Counted from the first letter of the stretch, positions 166 through 62,050 are shown. The stretch: 64,000 nucleotides of DNA from a virus (IMGVR_UViG_3300012662_000009:1-64000); one strand, 5' to 3'. Numbers and translations are program-made. Notes: generated by a model not told the origin, from the sequence alone.

Positions 166-1047
166 TCAATCCAATTTAATACCTAATTTAGGAGTTCTCG
201 TAAAATCTACGCAAGTCACATTCTTAGCTTTCTTAGCAAGACCCATGATATCTGTATATCGAATGTTATTAATAGTATTATTATGAAGATCTAAGACATT
301 TTTAAGACCATTAATAATATGGGTATATTTTTCACCGTCACCTAAAAGAATACATCCTAAATTCTTAAGTGAAATAATTCGTCTAATGCCTCTAAATCTT
401 TCATCGTCAACATCAGTATATTCTCTTACATCGCTGGGGAGTACTTCTTTCCAAGACATTTCATTGTCTTTGAATATTTTATTATATACAGACCATGATT
501 TGTCTTTACGAAGTTGATTGGCGAGTTTTAATAAATGGGGTTCATTGAGTTCTTCATTAATACTTAAAGATTCTTCTACTTTCTTAAAAGTATCACTATT
601 CCATTTCTTACCACATTTATTAACGTAAGTATTACCCATTACATGTATAGGAGTTTCACCTGACACTTTAAGAGACGGGCAAGATACTAATGTTAAGTTT
701 TTGGTAATGAGGAATGAAAGTCCCTCAAGAGATTCTAATTTAGGACAATTACTGATATCTAATGAGCCTTCTATAGGTAATTCTTGACAGAAAAGACCCC
801 GGATATTTGTGAGATTGGGGCAGTTTTCTATAGATATATCTCCGCGGACCGTAGCAAATCTTATATAATCAGGAAAATGGGTTTCATTGGTCGATAGTAT
901 AATATGACCTCTGGTGAGTTTTATATGGCCACATTTGAGGTATAATAACTTAAAAGACCCTTTGGAATTTTTTTTAATCCATTTGTCTATATTTTCTTTG
1001 GTTTCTGGATTAAATTCTTCGTAAATGTATTTATTTATGTTTTCCAT
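166..1047 (-). CDS. LRR-like hypothetical protein with CTS-like leader (MENINKYIYEE)
   Basis: Repeats SIENCPNLTNIRGL / DISNCPKLESLEGL / TLVSCPSLK; FPDYIRF motif resembles the paralogue family. Confidence 0.6.
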   Translation of the reverse strand: MENINKYIYEEFNPETKENIDKWIKKNSKGSFKLLYLKCGHIKLTRGHIILSTNETHFPDYIRFATVRGDISIENCPNLTNIRGLFCQELPIEGSLDISNCPKLESLEGLSFLITKNLTLVSCPSLKVSGETPIHVMGNTYVNKCGKKWNSDTFKKVEESLSINEELNEPHLLKLANQLRKDKSWSVYNKIFKDNEMSWKEVLPSDVREYTDVDDERFRGIRRIISLKNLGCILLGDGEKYTHIINGLKNVLDLHNNTINNIRYTDIMGLAKKAKNVTCVDFTRTPKLGIKLD

Positions 1048-1052
1048 AATAA

Positions 1053-3260
1053 CTATTTTTTCACAAATATTGATTTATACTCAATAATATGTTCTTCTTG
1101 AGAATTAGTTAAGGAGTATTGAAATTTAACATCATAATAACCTTTCGTTAAGGGTTTGTTTTTAGATGCTATAATAGGAGTTGTTATATGTTCATTGTAT
1201 ATAAAATTTTCACCAGTGGTCTGATTATGAAATGTCCAAGTAGCACTTTTTAAGTACCTGCTCCAATCAAAATTTACAGTGCTATCATCTTTAGATCTTA
1301 TTGTAGGTCTTATATATATAGCTTGATTGTCTATAATATAATTATCAATATCATCATTTGTAATCGATGTAAATATGGGGCTAATATTATGATATTGAGG
1401 GATGAACTCTAAGGAATTTTTTAGAATTTTATAATTACCCTTAGTATCTTTATATAAGTCATTTGTAAATTTCTTCGAAACAAATATTGAAACAATATCA
1501 GTTTCTCTTGTACAACTATAGGCAAACCAATATTCTTCCAAGGAACTAATTTCTTTATCAGAAGATATTGCTACTACATTATTAAGACCTATTCCAGAAA
1601 GTTTAGTCATATCTCCTATAGGTATATATTGAACATATGTATTAAGATTATCAGAAGTGCTAAGAGTATTTTCAAAGACATGTTTAAGATTTGTAGGTCT
1701 TATTAAATAATTTCTTTTTGACAATAAAGAAGGGCTAAAAATCTTTTCTACAACATAAAAATCTAAGGTAATGTTAGATATGTCATATACAGTGAAATCT
1801 ATAGACTTCTCAAAATTCTTTCCTGATGCTGCTTCAAAACGTAATTTAAGTGTATAATTACCAGCATCTTTAAGAAGGATGTTAAAGTTTATTTCACATT
1901 TACCTTTTATACTATTGAATATTTTATAATCTTCTATAGATATCCATTCCTTAGATTTTTTTATAAAGAGCTTTTCATGCTTAACAATATCATCTTTCTC
2001 TATGGGTATAATACATTTTATAGGTATTATAACACCAGGACCATTATAATTATGCGAATATAATAAAGGAAGTTCCCCCTCTGTTATTTGTTTAACATCA
2101 CTCAAAGGCTTAACACCGATTATTATAGAGTCTTTATAAGAACTTGGAATGCCACCGGAGAAAAGTGTGTTTTTATCAGCTCCTGTAGAAACATTGGATA
2201 ATATAATATCTTTATTGTTGTTTATAACACATTCAAATGATTTGCAGTCAAGAAACATATCATAACGACTTAAAGATCCCCAAGGAATATTCTTAATAGT
2301 ATTTGTAAAGACTTTATTTTCAAGAGTCATATGAAGTAAATCAAGATGTATGGGCATAAAATATGTTTGATAAAAATTACCTAATAAACACATTTTAAGA
2401 GCCATATCATTTCTTGCCCATTTATATACTATATCTTCCAATGTTGGATTCTTTTCGAGATCATAAGAATTTTCTACGGGACTCTGCAGAGCACAATATA
2501 ATGATATATAAGTAGTCTTAGCAAAAGATGTTAGGGCGTCTTTATATTTTTCTTCTAATATTGAATTAAGAGATCTATCTTCATAGGTTTTTTTACCAAA
2601 ATCTTCATGTTTCCATATCTCTCTGATTTTTAAGACATCTCCCCATTCAAACCATTTGAGACAGTTTAATAAAGATTTATAGGATCCTTTATTAGCTATC
2701 ATATCCCAGTAATTAGACATGAGTTCTTTGAATTTTCTATTAAGTGTTATATTATCTTTCTTTTCTTCATGTACATTAACGTCATATATAGCTTTTTGAA
2801 TAGACTCAGGAATTTCTACTCCCATGTTTGAAGCATTTATATATAAGGGTTCGTTCTCAGTATATAAATCAATACCTATATTAAATTCTTCGTTATCTAT
2901 ATAAAAACTTTCTATATACTCAGCAGCTGTTAATGAAGATGCTGAGAAGTATGTTATATATACATAAAAGTTACTATAAGGTGTTCCTTTAAGTTTTATG
3001 GTAGACTTTTTAAGGTTTGTTAAATCTGTATAATTAATTTCATTGATATTCTCGACATCATTTATTTTCGTCATGTCGAGTACCGAAAAAATATCGCTAT
3101 CTATAGATATAATAACACTCTCTTTGTCTGATAAAAATCCTATAGGTTGAGTATATATAAGATTAGTGGAACATTGACCCTCAAACCAATGAATAAAGGG
3201 TTTAGATCCATCATATACATTGCCTAATTGTAAATTTATAAACTTAATCATATTATTCAA
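1053..3260 (-). CDS. Putative baseplate/structural protein
   Basis: 735 aa ORF overlapping and downstream of the gp6-like gene; KGSYKSL...WFEW segment resembles wedge/tail proteins. Confidence 0.5.
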   Translation of the reverse strand: MNNMIKFINLQLGNVYDGSKPFIHWFEGQCSTNLIYTQPIGFLSDKESVIISIDSDIFSVLDMTKINDVENINEINYTDLTNLKKSTIKLKGTPYSNFYVYITYFSASSLTAAEYIESFYIDNEEFNIGIDLYTENEPLYINASNMGVEIPESIQKAIYDVNVHEEKKDNITLNRKFKELMSNYWDMIANKGSYKSLLNCLKWFEWGDVLKIREIWKHEDFGKKTYEDRSLNSILEEKYKDALTSFAKTTYISLYCALQSPVENSYDLEKNPTLEDIVYKWARNDMALKMCLLGNFYQTYFMPIHLDLLHMTLENKVFTNTIKNIPWGSLSRYDMFLDCKSFECVINNNKDIILSNVSTGADKNTLFSGGIPSSYKDSIIIGVKPLSDVKQITEGELPLLYSHNYNGPGVIIPIKCIIPIEKDDIVKHEKLFIKKSKEWISIEDYKIFNSIKGKCEINFNILLKDAGNYTLKLRFEAASGKNFEKSIDFTVYDISNITLDFYVVEKIFSPSLLSKRNYLIRPTNLKHVFENTLSTSDNLNTYVQYIPIGDMTKLSGIGLNNVVAISSDKEISSLEEYWFAYSCTRETDIVSIFVSKKFTNDLYKDTKGNYKILKNSLEFIPQYHNISPIFTSITNDDIDNYIIDNQAIYIRPTIRSKDDSTVNFDWSRYLKSATWTFHNQTTGENFIYNEHITTPIIASKNKPLTKGYYDVKFQYSLTNSQEEHIIEYKSIFVKK

Positions 3261-5264: not shown

Positions 5265-5266
5265 AA

Positions 5267-11096: not shown

Positions 11097-11807
11097 TTAC
11101 TTTGCAAATTCAATATGGTCCTCATAAATTTCTATATCCCTATACATCCCAAGGGACAAATGTTCAATGCCATTTGTAAATAATGTATCAAATAATTTTT
11201 TATTTTTTTCATAAAAAACATCTAAACCATATTTGTTAATTTGCCTCAAAAATTTCCCAGATAATTTAGATTTTCGAATATCTATAATAATATGGTTTGT
11301 TTTCGAATATAATTCGGTTAGTATCTTTTCATTCACATCAGCACCCTTCCAATCACTATTTTGAAAAGTTACATTAATGCAGACCAATTGGTCTTTATAA
11401 GATAACTTAATATTCTCCAGATCTTTTATATTAGTTATTATTACATATGAATTTTTTATATTAAGATTTTTTATAATATCGCAATCTATTTCTTCAAGTT
11501 TTCCGGGAATATTATTTATATCATTTTGAGAAATAGCATTATATTTAATTCCTGTAGGGATCTCCTCCCAGGATTTTTTATCGAATTTTACCCATTCAGG
11601 GGGATTAGCACTGAAGAAATAAGGGGAATAGGTTTTACCAGTATGATAAATAACTCCGTTTTTAATCTTAACATGATCTTTCATCATATACCAACTAAAA
11701 ACATTCTTTTCAAGCCATTGTAATATGGGTTCTTCTGGTACATTATCAAGCAAATCATCCCCAGAGTCAAATAAAGATTCTATTATATATTGTTTTATAG
11801 GTTTCAT
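11097..11807 (-). CDS. CTS-leader paralogue family member 1 (MKPIKQYIIESLFDSGDDLLD)
   Basis: Family motifs PPEWVKFDKKSW and SQNDINNIPG; start reassigned to ATG 11807. Confidence 0.8.
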   Translation of the reverse strand: MKPIKQYIIESLFDSGDDLLDNVPEEPILQWLEKNVFSWYMMKDHVKIKNGVIYHTGKTYSPYFFSANPPEWVKFDKKSWEEIPTGIKYNAISQNDINNIPGKLEEIDCDIIKNLNIKNSYVIITNIKDLENIKLSYKDQLVCINVTFQNSDWKGADVNEKILTELYSKTNHIIIDIRKSKLSGKFLRQINKYGLDVFYEKNKKLFDTLFTNGIEHLSLGMYRDIEIYEDHIEFAK

Positions 11808-11889
11808 CTTATAATGTATATTCATAAATATATAATAAATATTTCATTAGAGTATTGATATAAGTTATTATATATTAAAAAAATTGTCC

Positions 11890-13740
11890 ATGGACAATCA
11901 TACTGAAGTACAATCTAAGGTCTTACAAGAATCTACTGATATGTTTATAGGAGAAGGATATGCTCTTAAAAATCCTTCAAGTATCCCAGGGTTTAAGGAA
12001 ACCTCCAATTTTCGACCTAAATATTCAAAAGATACTCAAAAGAAAAAGAAAAAAAATCTCGTAGCAAAATTCTTTTCTAACATGTCTCGTATGGGTATGA
12101 GATATGAAGAAGATGTGGTCGCGAATATGCGTGCACTTCCTGCTGATAAAAGTCTTATACCAAAGCCTGATCAGTTTGTTCAACAGGATCTTTTTGCACA
12201 ATTATCAAGTTCTTGGAAGGTTAAGAATAATCAAGATAAAAATTTCTTCGAAAAGGATTTTCAAGAAAAAAGAGAAGCACTCCGTAAATTAGCTCTACAA
12301 CCAGAGCTCGAAGATATTCTTGATACAATGGCAAATGAGTCTATTGTATATGACTCTGATTATACTTATTTCGCAGAACCCTTTATGGAACAGCAAGAAA
12401 TGGGAGATCTTAAGAAGGAAGTCAGAGATAATATTACCAGTACTATGTCTGAGTGGTATAGGAAGTTTTATAAAATGCTTAATTGGAAGTACCGAGCTTG
12501 GGATGATTTTAAGAGATTTTTGATAGAGGGGAATTTGTCATGGGAAATAGTCTATGATGACCTTAATAAACCTACTAAGATCATAGGGCTTATACCTGTC
12601 GATGCTGCTACATTGACAAGAAAATTTAAGAATAATAAATGGTATTGGGTACAATTCTCGGGTATACAAGGTCGTGAAAGGACTTTATTAGATTCTCAAA
12701 TAATCTATGTGGCATATCAAGAAACCGGCTGTGTCTCCAGAACTTCTTATCTTGAACGACTTATAAGGCCTTTTAATATATATAGAATTATTGAACAAGC
12801 ACAATTAATTTGGACTATAACTAATTCATCTTATAAAATGAAATTTACAATACCTATTAAGGGTATGAATAAGGTTATGGGTATGCAAACGCTGAGCTCT
12901 GCTATGAATAAGTATAAAGAAGATATAAAGTTTTTATCAGATTCTGGTGAGCTTCAGATAAATGGTCAAGTTAATATGCCTTTTAATAAAGAATATTGGT
13001 TCCCAGAATCTGAATCCGGATCTCCTCAGGTTGAAACATTAGGTGGAGAAGGCCCTGAGCTCAATGATAATGATCAATTAAAGTATTTTAAGAATCAATT
13101 ATATAAAATTTCTAAAATACCCCTTTCACGCTTTGACCAGGAATCTGGTGAGACCTGGTTTGGATCTGATCCTACATCTGCAACAAGAACTGAGATAGAA
13201 TTTGCACGATTTGTGACACGTCTACGCAATCAATTCTCTCAAATTATTATTAAACCCCTTCAATTACAATTAGCGCTTTCTATACCAGAATTACAAGATA
13301 ATAGAGAGATTCTTGAAGCAGTTTCTTTGAAATATCATTCCTATAATTTATTTGAAGAGATGATGGACTTGGAACTCACGCAAAAACGAGTGGAGTTCAT
13401 AAATACAATGAAAGAAAGTTTAGTAGATATGGATATGGAAGGAAACGAGGTCAAATTCTTCTCATCTAAATTCTTAGTACAAAAATATTTACAGTATTCT
13501 GCCGCAGATCTTGCATTAAATGAGAAATTGAAAAAAGAAGAAATTGATGAATTGAACTTAGCAGGCGATCCAGATAATGCTCCTTCAGAGTCTTTAATTG
13601 ATCAAATAGCAAATCTTTTAGAATCTAAGGAAGATAAAATAGAAACTATAAAGAAAGTTATAAAGAAACGTAAAAAGAAAGTCAAAGATCATTGCGATGA
13701 TATCTTAAATGATGAAAATCATCCTGACGATGAAGAATAA
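11890..13740 (+). CDS. Portal protein (T4 gp20-like)
   Basis: SYLER...YRIIE, KEYWFP, VETLGG, YFKNQLYKISKIPLSRF and TRTEIEFARFVTRLRNQF motifs. Confidence 0.9.
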   Translation: MDNHTEVQSKVLQESTDMFIGEGYALKNPSSIPGFKETSNFRPKYSKDTQKKKKKNLVAKFFSNMSRMGMRYEEDVVANMRALPADKSLIPKPDQFVQQDLFAQLSSSWKVKNNQDKNFFEKDFQEKREALRKLALQPELEDILDTMANESIVYDSDYTYFAEPFMEQQEMGDLKKEVRDNITSTMSEWYRKFYKMLNWKYRAWDDFKRFLIEGNLSWEIVYDDLNKPTKIIGLIPVDAATLTRKFKNNKWYWVQFSGIQGRERTLLDSQIIYVAYQETGCVSRTSYLERLIRPFNIYRIIEQAQLIWTITNSSYKMKFTIPIKGMNKVMGMQTLSSAMNKYKEDIKFLSDSGELQINGQVNMPFNKEYWFPESESGSPQVETLGGEGPELNDNDQLKYFKNQLYKISKIPLSRFDQESGETWFGSDPTSATRTEIEFARFVTRLRNQFSQIIIKPLQLQLALSIPELQDNREILEAVSLKYHSYNLFEEMMDLELTQKRVEFINTMKESLVDMDMEGNEVKFFSSKFLVQKYLQYSAADLALNEKLKKEEIDELNLAGDPDNAPSESLIDQIANLLESKEDKIETIKKVIKKRKKKVKDHCDDILNDENHPDDEE

Positions 13741-13837: not shown

Positions 13838-15367
13838 ATGGATATACAGGAAATATTATTAAATCCTAAAGGAAAGGCTAATTCAAGATATATAAAGATT
13901 CATTGGCCTGAGGATTATAAAGAAATTATTAAAAAACCTGGTAAAACATTTTCAGAGCAATTGTATAATTATATATACAATAATCCTGAGCATAAATGCC
14001 CTGTATGTGGTAAAGAAACTAATTTTAAGACTTTAACAGAAGGTTATTGTGAATGTTGTTCTATAAGATGTGCTGGAAAGAACCCTAAAAGAAATGAAAG
14101 ATCTGAGCAAACATGTCTTAAAAAATACGGAGTAAAGAATCCTTCTCAGTCTAAAGAAATTCAAAAAAAGAAAGAAGAAACTTGTCTTAAAAATTTTGGT
14201 GTGACTTCTTATTTCAAAACTCAGAAATGTCGTGATAAATCTATAGCATCTTGTTTAGATAAGTATGGAGTTAAATATACTTTTCTTAATAAAGAAGTTA
14301 GAGAAAAAGCTAAGAAAAATTATAAAAATAAATGTTATAATCCTCATCCTGACCATATAGGATATACTGAAGAAGGTTTATGGATAATGCAATGCCCTCA
14401 TCCTAATTGTAATAAATGTGAAGAAAAAACTTACATAATCAAACAACAAAATTATAATGATAGAAAAAGACTGCAAACAGAACCCTGTACTAAGTTATTA
14501 CCAATCGATTTAGGAATTAAAGGTACTTCCATTGAACTCTTTGTCTGGTCTATATTAGATGAATATGATATTCAATACGAAACTAATAACAGAACTTTAA
14601 TATCACCCAAAGAACTTGATATATACATCCCTTCTAAGAATATAGCCATTGAATGTAATGGGCTTTACTGGCATTCCCTCAAAGAACCTAAATATCACAT
14701 CAATAAATTCAAAGAATGTCAAGAAAGGAATGTTCAATTATTATCTATATGGGAAGACTGGGTATACTCTAAACCAGATATTCTAAGATCTATATTACTA
14801 TCCAAATTGGGCCTTATAAAGAACAAAATATATGCCAGAGAATGTATTATAAAAGAAGTTAATAGCAAAGAATGTAGTAAATTCTTAGAAAACAATCATA
14901 TACAAGGCAAGACCCCGACTATGATCCGCTATGGATTATATTATAATGGTCAATTAGTATCCCTTATGACATTTAATAAGAACTCTAAGGACAACAATTG
15001 GGTTCTTTCAAGATTCTGTAATAAAATCAATACAAACATCATAGGAGGGGCATCTAAACTCTTCAAACACTTTCTTAAAGAACATCCTGGTGAAACTATT
15101 ATATCATATTCTTCTAATGATATTTCTAATGGACATTTATATGAAACCTTAGGTTTCATTTCCAACAATATTATAAGAGCTGCTTACTGGTATATTAGTT
15201 ATGATGATTATACAAGATTTCACAGATCAACTTTTTCCAAGGGATGCTTAAAAAGAATAGGATATGATATTGCAGGAAAAACCGAAGCAGAAATAATGTC
15301 TGAAATGCCTTACTGGAGAGTATATGATTCTGGGACGACCCAATGGAAATTTGTAAACATACTGTAG
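13838..15367 (+). CDS. Hef-like/PD-(D/E)XK endonuclease with Zn fingers, KYGV repeats and Mom-like GNAT C-terminus (copy A)
   Basis: CPVCG; TCLKKYGV repeats; ELDIYIP...IECNGLYWHS; LSRFC...GGASKL...ISYS...GHLYETLGF. Confidence 0.75.
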   Translation: MDIQEILLNPKGKANSRYIKIHWPEDYKEIIKKPGKTFSEQLYNYIYNNPEHKCPVCGKETNFKTLTEGYCECCSIRCAGKNPKRNERSEQTCLKKYGVKNPSQSKEIQKKKEETCLKNFGVTSYFKTQKCRDKSIASCLDKYGVKYTFLNKEVREKAKKNYKNKCYNPHPDHIGYTEEGLWIMQCPHPNCNKCEEKTYIIKQQNYNDRKRLQTEPCTKLLPIDLGIKGTSIELFVWSILDEYDIQYETNNRTLISPKELDIYIPSKNIAIECNGLYWHSLKEPKYHINKFKECQERNVQLLSIWEDWVYSKPDILRSILLSKLGLIKNKIYARECIIKEVNSKECSKFLENNHIQGKTPTMIRYGLYYNGQLVSLMTFNKNSKDNNWVLSRFCNKINTNIIGGASKLFKHFLKEHPGETIISYSSNDISNGHLYETLGFISNNIIRAAYWYISYDDYTRFHRSTFSKGCLKRIGYDIAGKTEAEIMSEMPYWRVYDSGTTQWKFVNIL

Positions 15368-15658: not shown

Positions 15659-16711
15659 ATGCCTAATAAATTTATCAGCTTAGATAATATTAAAGTTGTA
15701 TGGAAAAATATACATGAAAGGTTTCAAAGACTCTATGCTATTACTACATTTGATTTAAATGGATTATTATCAGAATCAACTCCTGAAACGATAAGGGTTG
15801 ATGTGTTACAAAATGAAAAAACTTATTATATAACAGATGATTCATATGAGTCACTTATAGAATATCTCACTACGGGGCTTTTTGATAAAACATTAGTGTT
15901 TGGTCTCAGAAAATTTTCTGTATTAAGTAATTTCATATATCAACAATCTTATCCTGGGGATATAGATATTAGTATGGCTGATATAATACTTATAGATGAT
16001 GCTAAGAATATATATAATTTCAAAATTACATCCGAAAGCTGGGATACTCGATATAGAATTAAAGTAATATTAAATAAGATATTTTATCAAGCGAATGATA
16101 TAGATAATAAAGAAGAAACTCTTAAAGATGCATATTTAGGTGAATGGTCATTAGATAATTGTGCCATAGATAATGGAATCCCTTCATCTGGTGTAGGAAA
16201 GAAGTTAATTTCAGGTACTCCATATATTATAGGGTCTTATAAATATTATGGTCAGACATCAGTAGGATCTTTTACTATTGATAAACCCACAACATATTAC
16301 CTGGTAGATGCTTATAATCAACATATTGATATATACTTAATTAAACTTAAAAAATATTTCTCTGATGATGATTTAAGAAATATTGGTTTTAGAAAAATAA
16401 ACCTTATAAATGTCGACACTATATCTTATGATACTTTGGTTAAGAATAAAATAGATGTAACCATATTACCACAAAAGACAGATTCAAAGGGTAATCCTAT
16501 AGAAGGACAATATTTATTAGATGGAATTACTGTGAAGAATACTGATAATATATATCAATTCACTATAAATCCTGAATATATATTCGAAACAAGATCTACT
16601 AAAAAAAATCATAAAGCACAATATGTATTAAGTATTTTTAGAAGAAGTGCTGATGGTGATGGAGTACGAAATCAATATGTAAAATTAGCCGAAAGACCTT
16701 ATATAAAATGA
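15659..16711 (+). CDS. Hypothetical, possibly fibre/adhesin-associated protein
   Basis: N-terminus KFISLDNIKVVWKNI resembles that of 33844 (EFLDANGLKTLCNEI). Confidence 0.45.
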   Translation: MPNKFISLDNIKVVWKNIHERFQRLYAITTFDLNGLLSESTPETIRVDVLQNEKTYYITDDSYESLIEYLTTGLFDKTLVFGLRKFSVLSNFIYQQSYPGDIDISMADIILIDDAKNIYNFKITSESWDTRYRIKVILNKIFYQANDIDNKEETLKDAYLGEWSLDNCAIDNGIPSSGVGKKLISGTPYIIGSYKYYGQTSVGSFTIDKPTTYYLVDAYNQHIDIYLIKLKKYFSDDDLRNIGFRKINLINVDTISYDTLVKNKIDVTILPQKTDSKGNPIEGQYLLDGITVKNTDNIYQFTINPEYIFETRSTKKNHKAQYVLSIFRRSADGDGVRNQYVKLAERPYIK

Positions 16712-17406
16712 AAAATATAAAAGAATATATAAACGAGTCGCTTTTCGATTCTGAAGATGATTTACTGGATAAAACTCCTGATATTGCTATATACAAATGG
16801 TTGGGAGAAAATACCGATTTAGAATATGCCCTAAAACACAATAGAGTGAAAGTTAATAATGGTAAGGTTTATACTGACACATCTACCAATTGGAGTCCTG
16901 TTACTATCAAATCTAATCCACCAAAATGGATAAAATTTGATGAAAAATCTTGGGGAGAACAGGCAATTAATATTAAATATAGCATTAAATCTCAAAAAGA
17001 TATAAATAATATTCCTGGATGGATTGAGCGTATTGAGGCTCCGGTCGTTAAAAATGTAGATATTAATACTAAGTTTTTAGAATTTATATATACGAAAGAA
17101 ATTGAAAATATAATTCTACACTATGATAAAGAAGATAATATACATGTAGAATTTGCTCAGTCAGAACCGGATGAAAATACTTTAATGAATATATCATCTA
17201 TAACTAATAGTATATATATAGATATTCGAAAAACTAAATTATGCAATAAACTTAAAAGACAAATTAAAAAATACGGTACAACAGATTTTTATACTAAAAA
17301 TTGGACTTTATTTAAAACTCTTTATGAAAATAAAATAAAATACCTACGAGTTGGGCCATGGGATTTTATTAGAATATATGATACTTATATTACATATGGT
17401 GCGTAA
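16708..17406 (+). CDS. CTS-leader paralogue family member 2 (MKNIKEYINESLFDSEDDLLDKTP)
   Basis: PPKWIKFDEKSW and SQKDINNIPG motifs. Confidence 0.85.
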   Translation: MKNIKEYINESLFDSEDDLLDKTPDIAIYKWLGENTDLEYALKHNRVKVNNGKVYTDTSTNWSPVTIKSNPPKWIKFDEKSWGEQAINIKYSIKSQKDINNIPGWIERIEAPVVKNVDINTKFLEFIYTKEIENIILHYDKEDNIHVEFAQSEPDENTLMNISSITNSIYIDIRKTKLCNKLKRQIKKYGTTDFYTKNWTLFKTLYENKIKYLRVGPWDFIRIYDTYITYGA

Positions 17407-27891: not shown

Positions 27892-27934
27892 ATATATAAT
27901 TATATTAAAATTATCCAGTTTCTTTATATACAAC

Positions 27935-27962
27935 AAAAGAGGATTCATAGAACCCTCTTTTT
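27935..27962. terminator. Terminator after the tail tube gene
   Basis: AAAAGAGG...CCTCTTTT hairpin. Confidence 0.6.
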
Positions 27963-37381: not shown

Positions 37382-37621
37382 TTATTTCGAAAAAGAGACA
37401 TTAAACATACCGATGAGTTGCCCCCATTTATTATCTTTTACAAGTTTACTATTAGTTTTTAAGAAACCATCAATAGTATTTTTCATACGGTCTTCATCAA
37501 GTTTATCACCAAAGACAGTCTCAAATTTCTTTTTAGCTACTTCGCGAAAATCATCTTCATTCTTAATGGTTTCTTCTGCTTCATTGAGCTGTTCATTTAT
37601 AAAATCAATTAAGTCTATCAT
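37382..37621 (-). CDS. Small protein with CTS-like leader (MIDLIDFINEQLNE)
   Basis: 79 aa, in an operon after the sigma factor. Confidence 0.65.
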   Translation of the reverse strand: MIDLIDFINEQLNEAEETIKNEDDFREVAKKKFETVFGDKLDEDRMKNTIDGFLKTNSKLVKDNKWGQLIGMFNVSFSK

Positions 37622-42047: not shown

Positions 42048-42136
42048 GTTATATAAATTTTTTTCTTTAATAATAATGCATTATAAGTATAATTCAAAAA
42101 GATATAGGTTATTTTAAGGATAAATATATAAAAAGA

Positions 42137-42685
42137 ATGACTATCATAGGCATTGACCCTTCTATTAATAGCACAGGCCTGTGTGTTAAAAAAGATAATA
42201 AAATAAAATACTATATAATACCTTCGAAGATGACAAAGAAAATGAAGGAATTTAATAATAAGTATATACAAATACTTCCTTATGAAAAATATGATATAAC
42301 AGGGCAAGAATATGTCGAAAAAGAATTTTCAAAGACCAATAATATATATAACATTTGTTTAATAATAGAATCCCTTATAAAAAAACATAAACCGGATATG
42401 ATTATTATGGAGGGTGTAGCGTATTCTTCTAATGGGTCAGTGGTTGATCTTGCGGGACTTAATTATTGTATCAGGATAACTTCTATGAAACATAACATAC
42501 CTTTTAAGATAGTTTCTCCTACTTCTGTTAAGAAATTTGCTGTGGCCAATGGACAGGCTACTAAAGATATTATTATAGACGCTTGGAAGAAATTAGATAA
42601 AAATATAAGAGATATTAGAGATATTAAAATAGATGATCTCGCGGATGCTTATTTTATAGCTAATTATCAAGACCTTGAAACATGA
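42137..42685 (+). CDS. RuvC-like Holliday junction resolvase
   Basis: IIGIDPS, IMEG, PTSVKKFA..G.A.K and DDLADAY. Confidence 0.85.
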   Translation: MTIIGIDPSINSTGLCVKKDNKIKYYIIPSKMTKKMKEFNNKYIQILPYEKYDITGQEYVEKEFSKTNNIYNICLIIESLIKKHKPDMIIMEGVAYSSNGSVVDLAGLNYCIRITSMKHNIPFKIVSPTSVKKFAVANGQATKDIIIDAWKKLDKNIRDIRDIKIDDLADAYFIANYQDLET

Positions 42686-42722
42686 TATAAAAAGATTATT
42701 TTTTAATTAAGAAATTAATCTA

Positions 42723-43598
42723 ATGGAACAAGTTTTACAATCGGTCATCGCCCAGTGGGGTGTCTTCGGAGTGGTTTTAGCAGCCGCCGGATATATTATA
42801 TATGATAATATCAAGAATAGTAGCAAAAAAACAAATATATCAAATAAATTAGAAAATATATCAGATGACTTGTTGAACCTCAAGACTGACCTTCCGACGG
42901 TACAATCCAAATTAGAATATGTTGAGAAGAAAATTTCTTTGATAAGCAACAATTTCGAAGATAAACTTAAGCTCCATGTAGATAATTTATCAACCCGTAT
43001 AGATGATCTTGAGGATAAAGTTAATGAACAGCCCAATAATATTATATCATCACTTAATAAGAGAGACAATGAAATAGTTAAAAAGCACAATGAACAGATG
43101 CTTTCAAGAATTACTTTGGCACCTAAGATATATAAATCTATGAATGATTATATTGATAGAATTGGGTGTAATCATATATTTATAGGGTTGTTTCATAACG
43201 GAACTTCTTCAATATCAGGTGTGCCTTTCTATAAATTTGATATAATAGCAGAAAAATTCGACCCCACCAAAATTAAACATGATGTAGAATTTGCTCATAT
43301 GTATAAAGACATAGATATATTACGTCATGGTAATTTACCTATAGAACTTGTACAGAATAATAGTTTGTATTATGTTATCGATGCTGATAAAAAATCTGAT
43401 TTAGAGGATATAGATGAAATTTTATATCACAGAATGTGTGGCAGAGATATAAAACAATTAGCTATACACCTCTTACGAGATGATAATGGTATTCCTTTAG
43501 GATTTGTGGGGTGCATAAAATATGATTATATAAATTTAGATTTACAGGAGCTCAAAAAATGCGCTAAAGAATTAGAAAATATTTATATTGATAATTGA
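42723..43598 (+). CDS. Membrane-anchored protein with GAF-like domain (possible holin T-like)
   Basis: N-terminal TM helix, coiled coil, FHNG motif and GIPLGFVG. Confidence 0.45.
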   Translation: MEQVLQSVIAQWGVFGVVLAAAGYIIYDNIKNSSKKTNISNKLENISDDLLNLKTDLPTVQSKLEYVEKKISLISNNFEDKLKLHVDNLSTRIDDLEDKVNEQPNNIISSLNKRDNEIVKKHNEQMLSRITLAPKIYKSMNDYIDRIGCNHIFIGLFHNGTSSISGVPFYKFDIIAEKFDPTKIKHDVEFAHMYKDIDILRHGNLPIELVQNNSLYYVIDADKKSDLEDIDEILYHRMCGRDIKQLAIHLLRDDNGIPLGFVGCIKYDYINLDLQELKKCAKELENIYIDN

Positions 43599-43623
43599 TA
43601 GTGTTATTATTAAAGAAAATATT

Positions 43624-43947
43624 ATGTACACTAAAAGCAAAATACAACAAGTTCTTGAATCTGTACAGGTTAAGAATAACCTTAAAGAAGGATTGAAGAA
43701 TCTTATGGATAAGTATAATATAGAAGATTCTGTATTTACAATTTATAATAACAATATTGTAGAGGTTACAAAGGGTTATTGTGTTCTTAAAGAAGAATTT
43801 AATAATCTTGATGAGGCTATTTCTAAAGGAAATATAATTCGAGTTATAAATAACTCTAAATTTTATGTCGTAGAACATTACAATAATCTTTCCGACTGTC
43901 CTAAAGAATCCCAAATATTTGATATAGAACAACTTAAATGTGTATAA
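43624..43947 (+). CDS. Hypothetical protein
   Basis: Coupled ORF; ATG at 43624. Confidence 0.5.
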   Translation: MYTKSKIQQVLESVQVKNNLKEGLKNLMDKYNIEDSVFTIYNNNIVEVTKGYCVLKEEFNNLDEAISKGNIIRVINNSKFYVVEHYNNLSDCPKESQIFDIEQLKCV

Positions 43948-44273
43948 TGATAGATTTGGATGCTTGCCTTAAAGAATCTGGTATAGTCAAAAAAGATATA
44001 TATATAAAAACTTTTGAAGAAACTGATCAAATAGCAAGAAAAGTTTCTAATGGGGAATTATATAATATAACTTTTGAGAAATCATCACTGAAATCGCGAT
44101 TCTTTATGATATTAAAAGAGCGTAGAAATGATCTATATATAATTAATTGTGATGCTAATAAATCTCGATTGAAGGAAGATATAGAAAATTCTTATGGTCT
44201 TATAATATATGATAATATAACTAAAGCACCCTACAAATCTTTATATTATTTAAATAAAACAACAATATGTTAA
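43938..44273 (+). CDS. Hypothetical protein
   Basis: Coupled ORF. Confidence 0.5.
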   Translation: MCIMIDLDACLKESGIVKKDIYIKTFEETDQIARKVSNGELYNITFEKSSLKSRFFMILKERRNDLYIINCDANKSRLKEDIENSYGLIIYDNITKAPYKSLYYLNKTTIC

Positions 44274-44581
44274 AATCGGCCCTACCAAAGTTGCAAGGGG
44301 ACATTGAAAAGATTCTTATAGATAGTTTATATGAAGCTCAGATGTCAGTTTTTAAGGCTAATGGATCAGAACCCGTTATAGATACTTATTGCAATACAAC
44401 ATTACAAGAATCTGCTATGAGTTATGCTAAGAAAGCAGCTGAGAAAGCTTCTCAACCTCTTGCAGAAGCTATATATAATTTTGTAATGGAAATAGGTATT
44501 TTAGCTGTGCCAAAATCATTAACTGCTCCGAATGGCCCCGTATCAGGTGTTATAAATATGGTTGATTTTAAGGTTTCTTGA
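44267..44581 (+). CDS. Hypothetical, possibly virion protein
   Basis: LAEAIYNFV...APNGPVSG. Confidence 0.5.
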   Translation: MLKSALPKLQGDIEKILIDSLYEAQMSVFKANGSEPVIDTYCNTTLQESAMSYAKKAAEKASQPLAEAIYNFVMEIGILAVPKSLTAPNGPVSGVINMVDFKVS

Positions 44582-44596
44582 AAAATATATTATACA

Positions 44597-45205
44597 ATGG
44601 AAGATAAAAAATGGGAAGATTATGATACTATTAAATGTCCTAATGGACAAATAATAGACATGCAGGCACTCTTAGCAGAGCAACAAAATGCTAAGGTGGC
44701 TCTCATAAGACTTATGCCATGGCTCGGTGGGTTCATAGGTCGTTTAAGATTTGTTTATACGTTCCGAGTTCAAACACAGGCAACTGATGGATATAATCTC
44801 TTTGTAAATCCTCAATTTACTTATAATCTAAATCTCTTACAAAAGACCTTTGTATTAGCTCATGAAGTTATGCATTGTTTATTAAATCACCTAAGACGAG
44901 CACAAGGTCGCGGAGACGATATGAACAGGGCTAATGTGGCAGCTGATTACGAAGCTAATATAACGCTTGCTGATGTCCCACCGTTCTCTGTAAGTATGAT
45001 TAAGGATATGCAAGCGCTTATAGATGAGAAATATCGTAAAATGTCTTATGAGGAAATTTATGATAAAGTGTCCAAAAGTAATGATTCTCAGCAAAATCAA
45101 CAAGGTGAAAAAGATGCTCAAAAGAACAATAGATACTCTTCTGATTATAAAGCTGGTTGGAATCAAGCTATGAAAGATTATAAAGAGGGTAAAATAAGTG
45201 TTTGA
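44597..45205 (+). CDS. Putative zincin metallopeptidase (DUF2201 N-terminal-like)
   Basis: TQATDG..NPQF, HEVMH (HExxH), NVAADYEAN and MSYEEIY. Confidence 0.85.
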   Translation: MEDKKWEDYDTIKCPNGQIIDMQALLAEQQNAKVALIRLMPWLGGFIGRLRFVYTFRVQTQATDGYNLFVNPQFTYNLNLLQKTFVLAHEVMHCLLNHLRRAQGRGDDMNRANVAADYEANITLADVPPFSVSMIKDMQALIDEKYRKMSYEEIYDKVSKSNDSQQNQQGEKDAQKNNRYSSDYKAGWNQAMKDYKEGKISV

Positions 45206-46269
45206 TTATGGACAAGAAAGAATATGATAAAGGATATAAAGAAGCCATAGAAGCTATTAAAGCTGCTCTTAAAGGTACTCCTAACAGCCAAGGTCAAGGA
45301 AAGCAATTAGACCCTGATATGGAAATGCCTCCGCAGCAACCTAATAACAATCAACAGAATCAACCGGGATCTTCAGGAGAATCTAAAAGTTCTTCTCAAG
45401 ATCAACAAGGATCCTCGACAAATTCTAAAAACCAAGGAGTTGTACAACCAGAAGATTGCATAGGTCCTGATCAACTCAATAAAGTCCCTGCTAAAGAAGG
45501 TGCTATGATTGATAAAGGTACTGGTGATAAAATAGCTGAGCAGGAAGGATATGCTAAAGAAGGTGGAGGTCAAGACGCTGTTGAAAGAGAATGGAAAGAT
45601 GCTGCTATAAAAGCTGCCTCAAAAATGAAAGGTGATGCTATGGGTAATCTTAAATCAAAAATTTTAGGTGCTTATAGGACATCTACCGACTGGAAAAAAG
45701 AATTGAGGACTATAGTAGGTCATTCAATATCCCCTGAAGACAAAAGGCAAGCGTATGCTAATAAAAATATTTTAATATCTCAAGATCGCATTGCCAGAAC
45801 TGATAAAGATAAATATGATAATGTGGATTATATCATGGTGTGGATAGACTCCTCAGGTTCTATGTCTGATGATCAATTAAGATTGTGTTTATCAGAAGTT
45901 TATACAATGGCTCTTAAGAAAAAACCCTTAAAAGTAATAACTGTACAGTGTGATACCAAGATCCAAGAAATCAAAGAATATAGAACTCTCAGGGAAATGC
46001 AAAGAGATTTCAAACAAGCAACTGTAAAAGGCCGTGGTGGTACAGAATTAAAACCTTGCTGGGATTTATTAAAAAATGATCCAAGATATAAAAGAATCAA
46101 ACCCGAGCTTGTAATGATCTTTACAGATGGCTATTTAGATCAATATAAGAGAGATCCCAGAAACATGAAGAATCTTTGTTGGGTTATTATTGATAATCCA
46201 GGATTTAATTTAGAATATAAAGATATGAACACTAAGGTAATTTATTTAAACTCTGAAGATGTAAAATAA
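45202..46269 (+). CDS. vWA domain protein (DUF2201 C-terminal-like)
   Basis: DWKKELR, MIDAS DSSGSM, CDT, GRGGT and FTDG; Q/S-rich linker. Confidence 0.85.
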   Translation: MIMDKKEYDKGYKEAIEAIKAALKGTPNSQGQGKQLDPDMEMPPQQPNNNQQNQPGSSGESKSSSQDQQGSSTNSKNQGVVQPEDCIGPDQLNKVPAKEGAMIDKGTGDKIAEQEGYAKEGGGQDAVEREWKDAAIKAASKMKGDAMGNLKSKILGAYRTSTDWKKELRTIVGHSISPEDKRQAYANKNILISQDRIARTDKDKYDNVDYIMVWIDSSGSMSDDQLRLCLSEVYTMALKKKPLKVITVQCDTKIQEIKEYRTLREMQRDFKQATVKGRGGTELKPCWDLLKNDPRYKRIKPELVMIFTDGYLDQYKRDPRNMKNLCWVIIDNPGFNLEYKDMNTKVIYLNSEDVK

Positions 46270-46276: not shown

Positions 46277-46840
46277 ATGAAAAATCTGAAAAATTCAATC
46301 TTAGAATCCTTAAATAACAAAACGAGGAGAATCAATGAGAGTGTTAATAAAAACAGTATTTTAGGAAAGCTCGAGTCTGATATTAATAAAGCTGTTTATG
46401 ATGAATCCATAGATCCGGATGATGCGATGGATCAGATCAATACAACTATTTATAAATTACAAAAAGTCTTTGAGAAGATGCGTAGAAAGACTGAGAATGA
46501 TGCTGTTATTGAGAATATTTATAAACAAGACATCGCAAACGAAGATGATGTAAAATATTATAAAAGTATCACCGAAATGTTATTAGATGTCATGATAGAT
46601 AATATTGAGTTGATTGATATTGATCTTGAAGAGCCCTTTGACAATGCATTACAATTTTATTTATATGAAGATAAAGAATTTTTAGAATCAGCTGAATTAG
46701 AAAATTTATGTGATCTTGCCAGCGGTGATGAGATTCTTGGAAGCGGAGCTGAAAAAGGAGATTACCAAAAATATTTTATAAATGCATGGATGCACTTAAA
46801 TGACCTTTGTAAGATAGCTACCGGTAAAGCTCTTCGATAA
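46277..46840 (+). CDS. Hypothetical protein with CTS-like leader (MKNLKNSILE...RINE); paralogue of 35306
   Basis: Shared C-terminal motif with 35306. Confidence 0.75.
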   Translation: MKNLKNSILESLNNKTRRINESVNKNSILGKLESDINKAVYDESIDPDDAMDQINTTIYKLQKVFEKMRRKTENDAVIENIYKQDIANEDDVKYYKSITEMLLDVMIDNIELIDIDLEEPFDNALQFYLYEDKEFLESAELENLCDLASGDEILGSGAEKGDYQKYFINAWMHLNDLCKIATGKALR

Positions 46841-47083: not shown

Positions 47084-47800
47084 TTATAAAATATTATCTA
47101 ACACTAAAACCTTTTTCTCATTTAATTGAAGTGCGTAAACATTATTATTTCGCATCTTAGTCAGGACATCTCTATATTTATTTACGAATTTCTTGGTTCT
47201 TAACTTCCCATGTTCTTTCGATAATTTTTGACCTAAATCGTTGTAATATAAAGTAATCTGATTTTGATCACTATATTTAGAAAACTTAATTTCAGTTAAT
47301 TGATCAATGTCTTTTACTCCTATCAATACTTCTGTATTAACATTATAAGTAATATTTTTTATATTTTCAGAGTTAATATTGGTCCAGTTATTTAATATTA
47401 AATTTTGAGTCTTATTATTTTGAAACTCTGCTATTCTATTAAATTTGTCTAATGGAATATTTTTTATATCCTTTTGAGATATAACATCATAATAAATGCA
47501 CGTCATGGTCCCTGACGCGGTCAGGGTGTTCATGCATGATTTCTCGTCAAATTTTATAAAACTTGGAGGTTGTTTATAATATTCTATATGATCACAACCA
47601 TGAGATATTTGAAATGATACTATACCTTTATCATCTATAGATAATACTTCTTTAGTTGGAATAGGATAGTAATATAATCTTTTAATAAATTTAACATTCT
47701 CATCAAACCATTCTATGATTGCATCTGTAGGAGTTTTATCAAGTAAATCATCTTCAGAATCGAAAAGCGACTCGTTTATATATTCTTTTATATTTTTCAT
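47084..47800 (-). CDS. CTS-leader paralogue family member 4
   Basis: First 72 nt match 16708 with one mismatch; PPSFIKFDEKS and SQKDIKNIP motifs. Confidence 0.85.
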   Translation of the reverse strand: MKNIKEYINESLFDSEDDLLDKTPTDAIIEWFDENVKFIKRLYYYPIPTKEVLSIDDKGIVSFQISHGCDHIEYYKQPPSFIKFDEKSCMNTLTASGTMTCIYYDVISQKDIKNIPLDKFNRIAEFQNNKTQNLILNNWTNINSENIKNITYNVNTEVLIGVKDIDQLTEIKFSKYSDQNQITLYYNDLGQKLSKEHGKLRTKKFVNKYRDVLTKMRNNNVYALQLNEKKVLVLDNIL

Positions 47801-52218: not shown

Positions 52219-52247
52219 AAAAAGGACCTTTAATCGGTCCTTTTTTT
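52219..52247. terminator. Bidirectional terminator
   Basis: AAAAAGGACC-TTTAATC-GGTCCTTTTT. Confidence 0.75.
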
Positions 52248-52406
52248 ATTTCTCTTAACTTTTTCTTTCTTAGCTTTAGCTGTAACTAATGGTTCGGATC
52301 CCGAGAGAGAATCTGTAGGGATCATTGGATTACCCATACCCATTGTATTACCTGATGTGGTAGCAATTCCACCATCACATTCTAAGTATTGTTTAAAAGT
52401 TTTCAT
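52230..52406 (-). CDS. Unannotated 58-aa protein with CTS-like leader (MKTFKQYLE)
   Basis: MKTFKQYLECDGGIATTSGNTMGMGNPMIPTDSLSGSEPLVTAKAKKEKVKRNKKRTD; ATGA overlap with the 52403 stop. Confidence 0.75.
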   Translation of the reverse strand: MKTFKQYLECDGGIATTSGNTMGMGNPMIPTDSLSGSEPLVTAKAKKEKVKRNKKRTD

Positions 52407-53302
52407 ATAAAAGAGCCATATTCAATTATTTTTCGACCATCTACAGTGTAATTCCATATCATTAATTCATTTGTTTTAGAATCTATAGACATTCTTAATG
52501 CCTTGGATCTCATATAAATAATATGTCGTATTCCATTATCATACATTTTTTTAAGATACGATTGAGCATCACCGAATAATTGCAAAGGTATATATTTCTC
52601 TTTATATTCCTTTTTATAGTCTTTGCATATATTATAAAATAATCTTTTAATATTTGGGCACGTCTCGCTTGCATTTATTATAGCAGAGCAATGATAATAT
52701 CCATCATCAGCACCAGATATTTTAATCTCCACAAGATCTTTCAATTGTATATTTGAATTCGGGATATTTATTATCAATTGAATCATATCCTTTGGGGTAT
52801 CTATTGTAAAATTTTTAATCGAATTGCAATTATACATAAATAATTTTGTACCTACTTTACTGGGGTTTGTCTTAATCTTTATATTATTAATATCCCCATA
52901 TACATAGGATATTGCACCATCAGGAACATCCTTTTGACTTTTAATATTATATTTTAGGCCAAAAATAATATCTCCGTTATTTATATCGTTTTTATTAAAT
53001 TTAATAAATGATGGTAGTGGTTTATATAGATGAATTAATAAATGTTCATTTTGAGCAACGGATAATTCACCCCCGGAATTTTGTGTAATTATGTCGTGAC
53101 CTAATGGAACGGTGGTCAAATAATTACTATGAACAATGTTTGCATTATCTTCATCAAAAATCCAATCCAATGCTGGTTCCTTCGGTGAAGAATTTAATAA
53201 ATCATCTTCAGAACCCAATAATCTTTCAGTGACCTTTAGGCTATCAAAGATACCTTTGCCAGTCATGAAACCGTCATTTATATACTCTTTTATAGACTTC
53301 AT
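52403..53302 (-). CDS. CTS-leader paralogue family member 5 (extended leader)
   Basis: MKSIKEYIND...LLGSEDDLLN; LPSFIKFNK; SQKDV. Confidence 0.8.
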   Translation of the reverse strand: MKSIKEYINDGFMTGKGIFDSLKVTERLLGSEDDLLNSSPKEPALDWIFDEDNANIVHSNYLTTVPLGHDIITQNSGGELSVAQNEHLLIHLYKPLPSFIKFNKNDINNGDIIFGLKYNIKSQKDVPDGAISYVYGDINNIKIKTNPSKVGTKLFMYNCNSIKNFTIDTPKDMIQLIINIPNSNIQLKDLVEIKISGADDGYYHCSAIINASETCPNIKRLFYNICKDYKKEYKEKYIPLQLFGDAQSYLKKMYDNGIRHIIYMRSKALRMSIDSKTNELMIWNYTVDGRKIIEYGSFI

Positions 53303-56725: not shown

Positions 56726-57496
56726 ATGAAGTCTATAAAAGAATATATAATAGAAGGATTATTTGATAATGAAGATGATTTACTGGATAAAAAGAGTTCT
56801 CAAGAAATATTAGAATGGTTTGATAATTATAATAATATAATCATTAACCAGCGCTTTCTTAAGATTCTTGATAATGGCACTGTATCATTAACACAAAAAG
56901 TTGATGTGTGTTGGTATAAACGTCTTCCAGAATATATAAAATTAGATAAAGAATCCTGGGAAAAATATGCTACTAATACAATAGCTTTTGAACTTAAAAC
57001 CCAAAGAGATATTGAAGGCATATACGGTAATATTCAGGAAATATGTAATGCTGAATATCTGCAAAACATTAATATTCATACAGATAGTGTATTATCATTT
57101 AGAGCTTCTATTAAAGATTATAAAAATATAACATTAATAGGTGATAACTATAAAATATTAAGATTAGGAATATATAATACTATAAAGGATCCTGGTCAAC
57201 TTTTACAGTTTAATTATAAAAATATTAAATTTGTTCATCTCATCTGTTACGGATTAGATGATCTGTTTCTCAATTATAAAAAATATGCAGATCTTTTAAA
57301 CGGATTGATTAATAAAGGGGTTGTTATGATTACATTTTATAATAAAAACTCCCACAAATCCATGATTGCGGCATATATGGTTAAGGGAACGCGAAGATGG
57401 AATATTAATAAAGTAACAAAGGATCATTCTAAAGGTGAATGGTTATTATTTACAGATGATAGGGATTTTATATCAATCTTAGAAAATTATTATTAA
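56726..57496 (+). CDS. CTS-leader paralogue family member 6
   Basis: MKSIKEYIIEGLFDNEDDLLDK; LPEYIKLDKESW; TQRDI. Confidence 0.85.
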   Translation: MKSIKEYIIEGLFDNEDDLLDKKSSQEILEWFDNYNNIIINQRFLKILDNGTVSLTQKVDVCWYKRLPEYIKLDKESWEKYATNTIAFELKTQRDIEGIYGNIQEICNAEYLQNINIHTDSVLSFRASIKDYKNITLIGDNYKILRLGIYNTIKDPGQLLQFNYKNIKFVHLICYGLDDLFLNYKKYADLLNGLINKGVVMITFYNKNSHKSMIAAYMVKGTRRWNINKVTKDHSKGEWLLFTDDRDFISILENYY

Positions 57497-60949: not shown

Positions 60950-61231
60950 TTACAGTTTTCCCACTAATTCAGAAGCAATCGCTGTCTGTGTTACGTAAGT
61001 ACTTAAATTATCATTATCAAGGGTCTCAGGTGTAATTACTTGAGTCACAAACTTCTTTTCCTTAAGATCTTTAACATCTATAGGGTCCTTAGTAGGCTCT
61101 TCAGTGGGTTCCTGGGGATCTTTGGGTTGTTCCTCGCCAGTGGTACCTTGATCAGCACCAGATACCGGAGTCTCAACACTTTCGTTATCCTGCACAGCTA
61201 TTTTTTCGGTATTTTTTGTAGTCTTTGCCAT
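60950..61231 (-). CDS. Small acidic, proline-rich protein
   Basis: 93 aa; own TTATTATA upstream. Confidence 0.6.
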   Translation of the reverse strand: MAKTTKNTEKIAVQDNESVETPVSGADQGTTGEEQPKDPQEPTEEPTKDPIDVKDLKEKKFVTQVITPETLDNDNLSTYVTQTAIASELVGKL

Positions 61232-61276
61232 TATTAGATTTTCTTATTTTTTATTATAATAAAATTTTATGGGATC

Positions 61277-62050
61277 TTATTTTATCTTTTCGCGCCATCT
61301 ACCTTTTCTGGGATCTATGGTTACAGTTTGATTTATATCAGTGAATTTAAGAATACTTCTTAATCTTCCCGCAGAACAAATTATTGTTGGGCATTTTAAT
61401 TTAGTAAGTAAGTGGTTAGAAAGGATTTCTCCATGTTTTGTAGAAAAACTTAATTTATCATAAGAATTCAGATCTTCTATATGTAATTCTACTCGAGTAT
61501 CTGTTGTCATGGAGATATTCATAATATCATCAGGTGTTGCACTATCAAGATATAATTCAAGCCAACTCGAAGGTTTCTTTGTCTTAAGTTTAATCTTATT
61601 AAAAGACCTTACATCAGACATATCAAAACTATCTTTAACCAGAAATGTTAAATTGGATACTTTATCAGTACATATAGCAGAGATAAAACCGGGTAATCTT
61701 TTCAATTGGTCTTGAGTGATATTATTATAACATAATATAAATCTTAAGGTATCACAAGATTTCTTATCAAAATTTATATAAGAAGGAAGTGGAGCATCGA
61801 GCTCAAAAGTTCGTCCTGAGGGATAATTATCATATATAATACCATCCTTAATAGAAAAATCCTTTTCAATGTTCCTTGTAGTATGACTATTATCAATACT
61901 TTTTAAATAATCATATATAGCTTGATCGGGGGTTTTGTTAAGTAAATCGTCTTCAGAATCAAATAATCCTTCTCTAACTGCTGTTAAGTTATCAAAGGTT
62001 TCTTTGCCCGCTGTTAAGCTATCATTTATATATTCTTTTATAGGTTTCAT
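61277..62050 (-). CDS. CTS-leader paralogue family member 7 (extended leader)
   Basis: MKPIKEYINDSLTAGKETFDNLTAVREGLFDSEDDLLNKTP; LPSYINFDKKS; start reassigned to 62050. Confidence 0.8.
   Translation of the reverse strand: MKPIKEYINDSLTAGKETFDNLTAVREGLFDSEDDLLNKTPDQAIYDYLKSIDNSHTTRNIEKDFSIKDGIIYDNYPSGRTFELDAPLPSYINFDKKSCDTLRFILCYNNITQDQLKRLPGFISAICTDKVSNLTFLVKDSFDMSDVRSFNKIKLKTKKPSSWLELYLDSATPDDIMNISMTTDTRVELHIEDLNSYDKLSFSTKHGEILSNHLLTKLKCPTIICSAGRLRSILKFTDINQTVTIDPRKGRWREKIK

Follow-up and report, generated by a model that had tools for sequence, protein, structure and literature searches.

The DNA examined here, hereafter the window, is the first 64 kb (positions 1 to 64,000) of the virus contig IMGVR_UViG_3300012662_000009 (158,646 bp, 31% GC, CheckV completeness estimate of 97%). 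Judging from its gene content, the contig belongs to a T4-like myophage, encoding a T4-type portal, sheath, tube, baseplate wedge, and gp13-like adaptor, together with replication and recombination proteins (family B DNA polymerase, single-stranded DNA-binding protein (SSB), RuvC, and SbcC). Between positions 166 and 62,050, many open reading frames (ORFs) begin with variants of one short leader with the ten-residue consensus M-K-x-I/L-K-x-Y/F-I/L-x-E. A previous model-generated interpretation (the sequence-only reading) had listed 16 of these N-termini and proposed that they resemble the capsid targeting sequence (CTS) of T4 and mark an arsenal of proteins packaged in the head and injected with the DNA, possibly for use against host defences. 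All 16 are present at the coordinates and on the strands that it gave, those at 11807 and 62050 being the second in-frame Met, 6 and 5 codons, respectively, into the longest ORF. The carriers had also been described as otherwise unrelated, which all-against-all BLAST contradicts for 9 of the 16, since seven belong to a family of 15 paralogs (family A) and two to a second one (family B). The carriers of the window, the portal and protease genes, and the relevant genes elsewhere in the genome are the following:

166-1047, minus strand: 293-aa protein, M-E-type leader (13.4 bits in the scoring matrix described below), last gene of a baseplate operon
11097-11807, minus strand: family A member, leader at the second Met, divergent from the portal gene
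11884-13740: T4-type portal gene, part of the structural gene set of a T4-like myophage
16708-17406, plus strand: family A member, canonical leader, acidic module S-L-F-D-x-E-D-D-L-L-D-K, body resembling leucine-rich repeat (LRR) proteins
22789-24222, minus strand: gp21/S77-type prohead protease that continues into a fused, scaffold-like C-terminal extension
24280-24993, minus strand: family A member, immediately upstream of the protease gene
24996-26297, minus strand: 433-aa basic protein, 13-residue leader variant, in the head-gene operon
35306-35815, plus strand: family B member, canonical leader, paralog of 46277; another paralog at genome 110309 is leaderless
35902-36762, minus strand: DUF285 repeat protein (Pfam PF03382, 2.8e-62), canonical leader; paralog at genome 71253 leaderless
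37382-37621, minus strand: 79-aa acidic protein with leader
37627-39009, minus strand: 460-aa sigma-70-like protein, canonical leader; leaderless paralog at genome 103967
40194-42047, minus strand: MoxR-like AAA+ ATPase (PF07728, phrog_1297), atypical leader ending C-F-N-E (7.2 bits in the same matrix)
46277-46840, plus strand: family B member with leader, very acidic (isoelectric point, pI, 4.4)
47084-47800, minus strand: family A member, first 33 nt identical to those of 16708
52230-52406, minus strand: 58-aa protein, 9-residue leader followed by a copy of the capsid-protein N-arm and a basic tail
52403-53302, minus strand: family A member, Asp-10, extension with a further hydrophobic-x-E before the acidic module
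56726-57496, plus strand: family A member, E|G-L-F-D junction, TTATTATA-type motif upstream
61277-62050, minus strand: family A member, Asp-10, extension ending V-R-E|G-L-F-D
Genome 82086-83804, outside the window: major capsid protein
Genome 86646, 93340, 111678, and 114934, outside the window: unrelated carriers
Genome 113527: 11-residue leader variant, atypical

The pattern M-K-x-h-x-x-Y/F-h-x-E (h, hydrophobic residue) fits 19 of the 180 N-termini of the whole genome, where ~0.1-0.2 would be expected, and is almost never found inside proteins. More precisely, the regular expression used, M[KRDE]x[ILFVM]xx[FYSC][ILVF]x[ED], matched 16 N-termini plus three nearby in-frame Met positions among the 180 ORFs, against 0.09 expected from composition and a mean of 0.8 (maximum 5) after column shuffling; a single one of 948 internal Met residues matched. 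With a position-specific scoring matrix (PSSM) built from one leader per family, and 43,948 internal windows as background, 19 of the 180 N-termini scored above the 99.9th percentile of the internal windows (0.18 expected), and the scores were bimodal. Counting variants, approximately 24 of the 180 genes are carriers. Position 4 is hydrophobic in all ten unrelated families and position 7 aromatic in nine of them, and the hydrophobic residues at 4 and 8 and the Glu at 10 hold across the ten. The description of a single pattern of about ten residues ending in hydrophobic-x-E suits most of the listed leaders, with the exception of those at 53302 and 62050, which end in Asp, and of the atypical ones at 42047 (C-F-N-E), 52406 (9 residues), and 26297 (13 residues). 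None of the leaders has the hydrophobic core of at least 10 residues after a basic N-region that characterizes Sec, Tat, or lipoprotein signal peptides; they are charged and amphipathic, with acidic or polar residues next.

At such a low GC content, a recurrent start of this kind could in principle be an artefact of AT-rich codons (those for Lys, Ile, Asn, Tyr, and Glu) or a nucleotide-level signal, such as a translation initiation element or a promoter-like AT-rich box, the more so as MK starts are common and some non-carriers begin with M-K-T-F. We consider this very improbable in view of the counts above and of codon usage: at least seven different codons specify position 4, and synonymous changes at positions 7, 8, and 10 preserve the residue class. 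Such codon diversity at conserved positions argues for a constraint on the peptide and not on the DNA.

The distribution of the leader among genes is also selective. None of the annotated replication, tail, portal, and capsid genes carries one: it is absent from the DNA polymerase, SSB, exonuclease, RuvC, and SbcC, the kind of genes that the sequence-only reading had proposed for comparison, as well as from the portal, sheath, tube, baseplate, adaptor, and capsid proteins. At the same time, the leader is modular, being carried by about ten unrelated families, four of which also have leaderless paralogs. These exist for the sigma-like, DUF285, and family B proteins and for family A, whose leaderless members start with Met-Ser-Ile/Leu-Phe-Asp, that is, the predicted mature N-terminus preceded by a start Met. 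Two family A members of a relative are leaderless in the same manner.

Family A comprises 15 full-length paralogs, including the window carriers 11097, 16708, 24280, 47084, 52403, 56726, and 61277. By far the best conserved part of these proteins is formed by the first ~22 residues, which contain the leader and an acidic module (S/G-L-F-D-x-E-D-D-L-L-D-K), with bodies that fall to 23-45% identity. Within the leader, there is no variation at M1, K5, and E10 and very little at K2, I4, Y7, and I8, and the junction after the Glu reads E|G-L or E|S-L. In all Asp-10 variants, whether from this genome or from relatives, 11-22 additional residues separate the leader from the acidic module and terminate in another h-x-E. 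An AlphaFold2 (AF2) model of the 16708 protein (pLDDT 90, pTM 0.83) shows residues 1-20 disordered and a folded body of ~210 residues. Its VIA-wide structural neighbours are mostly LRR proteins with Z scores of 4.2-6.6, the range of common arrangements, so that ‘LRR-like’ describes the fold and is not a family assignment; a Foldseek search of the same model against the PDB returned nothing at E <= 0.001. The family is confined to a few metagenome contigs of 160-170 kb, and its copy number and positions differ in a 169-kb relative. A scan of IMG/VR with the family A alignment gave 231 pattern matches and no confirmed relative, and of 1.84 billion representative clusters only 44 had the N-terminal module, which in 43 cases lay at the N-terminus or a few residues from it. 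The leader is conserved in distant members of the clade.

The size of this family raises the possibility that the shared N-terminus reflects paralogy or recombination and serves some other purpose unrelated to the capsid, for instance docking to a MoxR-type ATPase or to another phage or host partner. Indeed, 15 of the ~24 carriers form one family, several leaders are identical at the DNA level, and the leaderless members retain the acidic module, which must then work without the tag. This explanation nevertheless appears improbable, because about ten unrelated families bear the leader and because three features discussed below would have to be coincidental, namely the agreement with the positions mapped by mutation in T4, the occurrence of one predicted site in both the capsid protein and the protease, and the way in which Asp-10 variants behave.

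The sequence-only reading had located a gp21-like protease at 22789-24222, an assignment that holds: the protein matches Pfam PF03420 (Peptidase_S77) with 34.4 bits (cut-off 27) and phrog_207 with 9.5e-39, and in a pairwise alignment its motifs GELEHP and ISSRATG correspond to the catalytic His and Ser motifs of T4 gp21. A phmmer search of the protease against the PDB gave no matches. Its N-terminus has an I-Y-E that ends at residue 9, the counterpart of L-I-E-9 in T4 gp21. The C-terminal ~310 residues (165-477) are rich in repeats and contain 22 [IL]xE sites where 8.1 are expected (2.7-fold); the repeats are of the type K-W-I-I/V-E-E-Y/F-S-P. Near the C-terminus of this extension the 7-mer VYEGLQT occurs (E453), and the same 7-mer forms the predicted propeptide site of the major capsid protein (E40, V-Y-E|G-L-Q-T). 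The presence of the same h-x-E|G-L in the capsid protein and the protease, and of E|G-L or E|S-L at the family A junctions, points to one recognition site across shell, enzyme, and cargo. In Tenacibaculum phage PTm1, a cultured relative, the homologous fusion is annotated as ‘prohead core scaffolding protein and protease’; the head region of that phage has the same protease-scaffold fusion and an h-x-E capsid-protein site, and no M-K-x-I-K-E-Y-I leaders in the 19 kb examined.

The comparison with T4 is informative since the function of individual CTS residues is known in that phage. The T4 CTS has ten residues (PMC8442874). Targeting depends on its positions 4 and 7, as mapped in the internal protein IPIII, and processing on positions 8 and 10, with Asp-10 blocking processing but not targeting (PMC9026906). 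The leader described here has the same length and the same location at the extreme N-terminus, its conserved positions (4, 7, 8, and 10) are the functional ones of T4, and its consensus has five of ten residues in common with the T4 tag (M1, K2, E6, I8, and E10). As for IPI-III, the tag is found on unrelated proteins, in a genome encoding a homologous S77 protease, with cleavage predicted after h-x-E. IPI does start with MKTFKEF, as had been stated, and lacks Glu-10, its next I-x-E ending at residue 19. This fits the mature form of IPI, which has 76 of the 95 residues (PMC3012670). The Asp-10 leaders resemble IPI in this respect, with no cleavable residue 10 and an h-x-E site downstream instead. 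A scan of T4 for the CTS start retrieved four ORFs (IPI, IPII, IPIII, and gp61.1), as opposed to ~24 carriers here. The cargo also differs: the T4 internal proteins are small and highly basic (PMC8442874), whereas the proteins tagged here, among them an LRR-like family, DUF285 repeats, and a sigma-like protein, are not small basic DNA-binding proteins and have no sequence similarity to them. The acidic module that follows the cut site in family A has no T4 counterpart. 

The 58-aa protein encoded at 52230-52406 aligns with T4 gp61.1 (38% over 42 residues, pairwise E value of 8e-5), weak evidence for such short proteins. Both gp61.1 (54 aa, annotated as hypothetical; NC_000866 18966-19130) and the 58-aa protein combine a CTS-type start, a stretch similar to the mature N-arm of their own major capsid protein, and a Lys-rich tail; the leader of the latter has nine residues, unlike the T4-type CTS of gp61.1. 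The two may represent an unrecognised conserved small head protein of T4-like phages, and the alignment with a CTS-bearing protein suggests that the tag was inherited from a common T4-like ancestor.

Even if the tag targets the prohead, most carriers could be core proteins that act during assembly, like gp67 and gp68 of T4, and that are degraded or expelled at maturation, in which case no arsenal would be injected. Gene order lends itself to this explanation, with family A members directly upstream of the protease gene and beside the portal gene, where T4 has gp67 and gp68. T4 gp24 and the T4 core proteins also bear short h-x-E propeptides (PMC5694885), the conserved acidic module recalls acidic core proteins, and the AAA+ and sigma-like carriers belong to the conserved gene core of the clade and not to its variable accessories. 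However, the confidently folded 210-residue body of family A and its sequence and copy number, hypervariable between relatives, would be unusual for scaffold parts, and the mature parts of the carriers are not enriched in cleavage motifs, in contrast with the protease extension. On balance, we think it unlikely that the carriers are mainly core proteins of this kind.

Large sets of head proteins are not without precedent. The giant phages SPN3US and phiKZ have large families of paralogous head proteins, with 20 members in family B of SPN3US (PMC5694885). Like the ejection and inner-body families of phiKZ, 201phi2-1, and SPN3US, those described here consist of paralogs whose copy number varies between related phages. 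The propeptides of the giant-phage proteins are removed after Glu by a gp21-related protease, as is only predicted here, but they mostly exceed 100 residues and end in S/A-x-E, whereas the leaders of our contig span 9-32 residues and have a hydrophobic residue two positions before the Glu. There is no sequence similarity to the giant-phage families, and the genome is one of 159 kb with T4-like gene content.

Apart from family A, the carriers are heterogeneous. The proposal of a larger and more diverse cargo than in T4 is compatible with the ~10 unrelated families that bear the leader, with the reservation that two paralog families account for over half of the ORFs listed. The sigma factor named among this cargo has a canonical leader, but its Sigma70_r2 match reaches 21.6 bits, below the cut-off of 24; weak matches in the PDB to region 2 of FliA/WhiG and to region 4 of RpoS occur in the right order (E values of 0.005-0.03). 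Its orthologs on contigs of 175 kb and 268 kb keep F4, the hydrophobic residues at 7 and 8, and E10, with changes at the other leader positions. The AAA+ identity of the ATPase at 40194-42047 was correctly recognised, but its status as tagged cargo is less well supported, as its leader is atypical and Glu-10 is not conserved: over 600 homologs exist and, of the 120 inspected, most keep M-K-x-I-x-E-x-F. Identity across these homologs of the AAA_5 (MoxR-like) ATPase is ~60%, with contigs reaching 275 kb in length. In relatives, synteny extends from this gene to RuvC and a DUF2201_N/DUF2201 (VWA-like) pair, so that the region (window 40194-46269) is a conserved core module of the clade. We could not confirm any nuclease among the carriers. 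For the 433-aa protein at 24996, whose 13 N-terminal residues are nearly invariant in three homologs that are 36-59% identical overall, a restriction-endonuclease-like fold is no more than a weak lead, as type II restriction enzymes occur among its Atlas structural neighbours at TM scores of only 0.39-0.46; the AF2 model, built from three sequences, has a pLDDT of 50. An additional protein at genome 147872-149017, with a MATCAP-like peptidase domain (PF08014, 3.9e-15), starts with M-K-T-F-N-E-Y-I and has Thr at position 10.

A leader may also serve as the recognition sequence of a modifying enzyme, as in ribosomally synthesized and post-translationally modified peptides (RiPPs). The genome has only two radical-SAM matches, in open frames of 277 and 178 aa that we read, from their N-terminal sequences, as QueE-like and NrdG-like. 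Neither adjoins a carrier and no candidate maturase was seen in the genome, although SPASM domains were not searched directly; on these grounds we rejected a radical-SAM tag and find a RiPP-like role hardly plausible.

We also looked at upstream sequences. The most enriched upstream 8-mer is TTATTATA, which precedes 24 genes (2.7 expected) and, as TTATTATA(TA), is located upstream of the portal, protease, tube, and adaptor genes, at 13-32 nt from their start codons. Sites are found upstream of window 5267, 11884, 22267, 22789, 27987, and 62069, among others, and the motif is a candidate late promoter. A second motif, TATAAATA, occurs upstream of a mixed set of genes. A link of the leader genes to late promoters was rejected, given the lack of TTATTATA enrichment (see below) and the mixed nature of the TATAAATA genes. 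Leaderless family A copies (genome 70431 and 86489; L006 1438 and 2137) have a TATAAATA-containing stretch upstream, whose in-frame reading is Y-K/Q-Y-I-T; this stretch could be the remnant of a leader, or else a promoter that took its place.

The nearest cultured relatives of the phage are the Tenacibaculum phages PTm1 and pT24, the Sphingomonas phage PAU, and the Lak megaphages, with ~35-38% identity for the protease and capsid protein, from which we tentatively place its host among the Bacteroidota. A megablast search of the head region against phage records gave short homing-endonuclease matches and nothing else. Six paralogous homing-endonuclease-like genes (phrog_3339; DUF7487 in relatives) are scattered among the structural genes, one of them between the head and tail-tube genes:

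Window 13838-15367: homing-endonuclease-like paralog
Window 26299-27948: homing-endonuclease-like paralog
Window 28696-30387: homing-endonuclease-like paralog
Genome 68642, 83973, and 142949: homing-endonuclease-like paralogs

Taken together, these data make it likely that the ten-residue N-terminus is the version of the T4 capsid targeting sequence used in this phage lineage. What the sequences show is an enriched and modular motif, a protease that has the catalytic residues, and predicted sites that match in capsid protein and protease; docking, cleavage, retention, and ejection of the cargo, like any anti-defence role, are inferred. Several observations weigh against this interpretation. 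The mature cargo is not significantly depleted of [IL]xE (observed/expected ratio of 1.04 versus 1.21 in other proteins, p = 0.16). In two family A members, a start 5-6 codons upstream gives a longer ORF, and the leader may then lie slightly inside the protein. Some of the sequences scored with the PSSM had also served to build it. The N-termini of the AAA+ ATPase and of the 147872 protein have no conserved Glu-10, and leader genes show no upstream enrichment of TTATTATA (7 of 24 versus ~35 of 146). About half of the carriers are paralogs, which brings the number of independent acquisitions nearer to 10 than to 24. Finally, the carriers are not basic, with predicted mature forms of median pI 6.9 (range 4.3-9.7).

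If the leader works as a CTS, late in infection the tagged proteins would dock by this short amphipathic segment onto the scaffold core, probably the coiled-coil extension of the protease, and would become enclosed by the shell. Cleavage by the gp21-type protease behind the Glu (h-x-E|S/G/A/K) would next free the mature proteins within the head, and folded cargo retained there would leave with the DNA at the next infection. The mechanism itself would be that of T4, and reviews have already proposed that T4-like phages can load diverse proteins by means of the CTS (PMC3012670, PMC9026906). Novel aspects are the number of genes involved (~24 of 180), the types of protein tagged, the additional acidic module, and the finding of such a tag in an uncultured, distant clade. 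A cargo dominated by one hypervariable LRR-like family, with DUF285 repeats, a sigma-like protein, and small acidic proteins as singletons, would be consistent with binders or regulators directed at host proteins at an early stage. Possible, though more doubtful than packaging as such, is that the clade delivers at DNA entry both a diversifying library of LRR-like binders and a sigma-70-like factor that reprograms the host RNA polymerase before phage expression, the acidic module, exposed only by the protease cut, being a second signal for retention, ejection, or host docking. To our knowledge, no virion-delivered sigma factor has been described.

The cargo of T4 consists of three internal proteins and Alt. 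Judged by its leaders, the phage studied here probably packages an unusually large set of proteins: should the tag act as it does in T4, roughly one in eight of its genes would encode a virion-delivered protein, far above T4, and the hypervariable LRR-like proteins would amount to a natural repertoire of injected binders, shaped by an arms race with the host. The tag would also allow packaged cargo of uncultured T4-like phages to be predicted by a simple sequence criterion, which here yields such candidates as a packaged sigma-like factor and a gp61.1-like micro-protein, and its heterologous variants might be usable in T4-based protein delivery.

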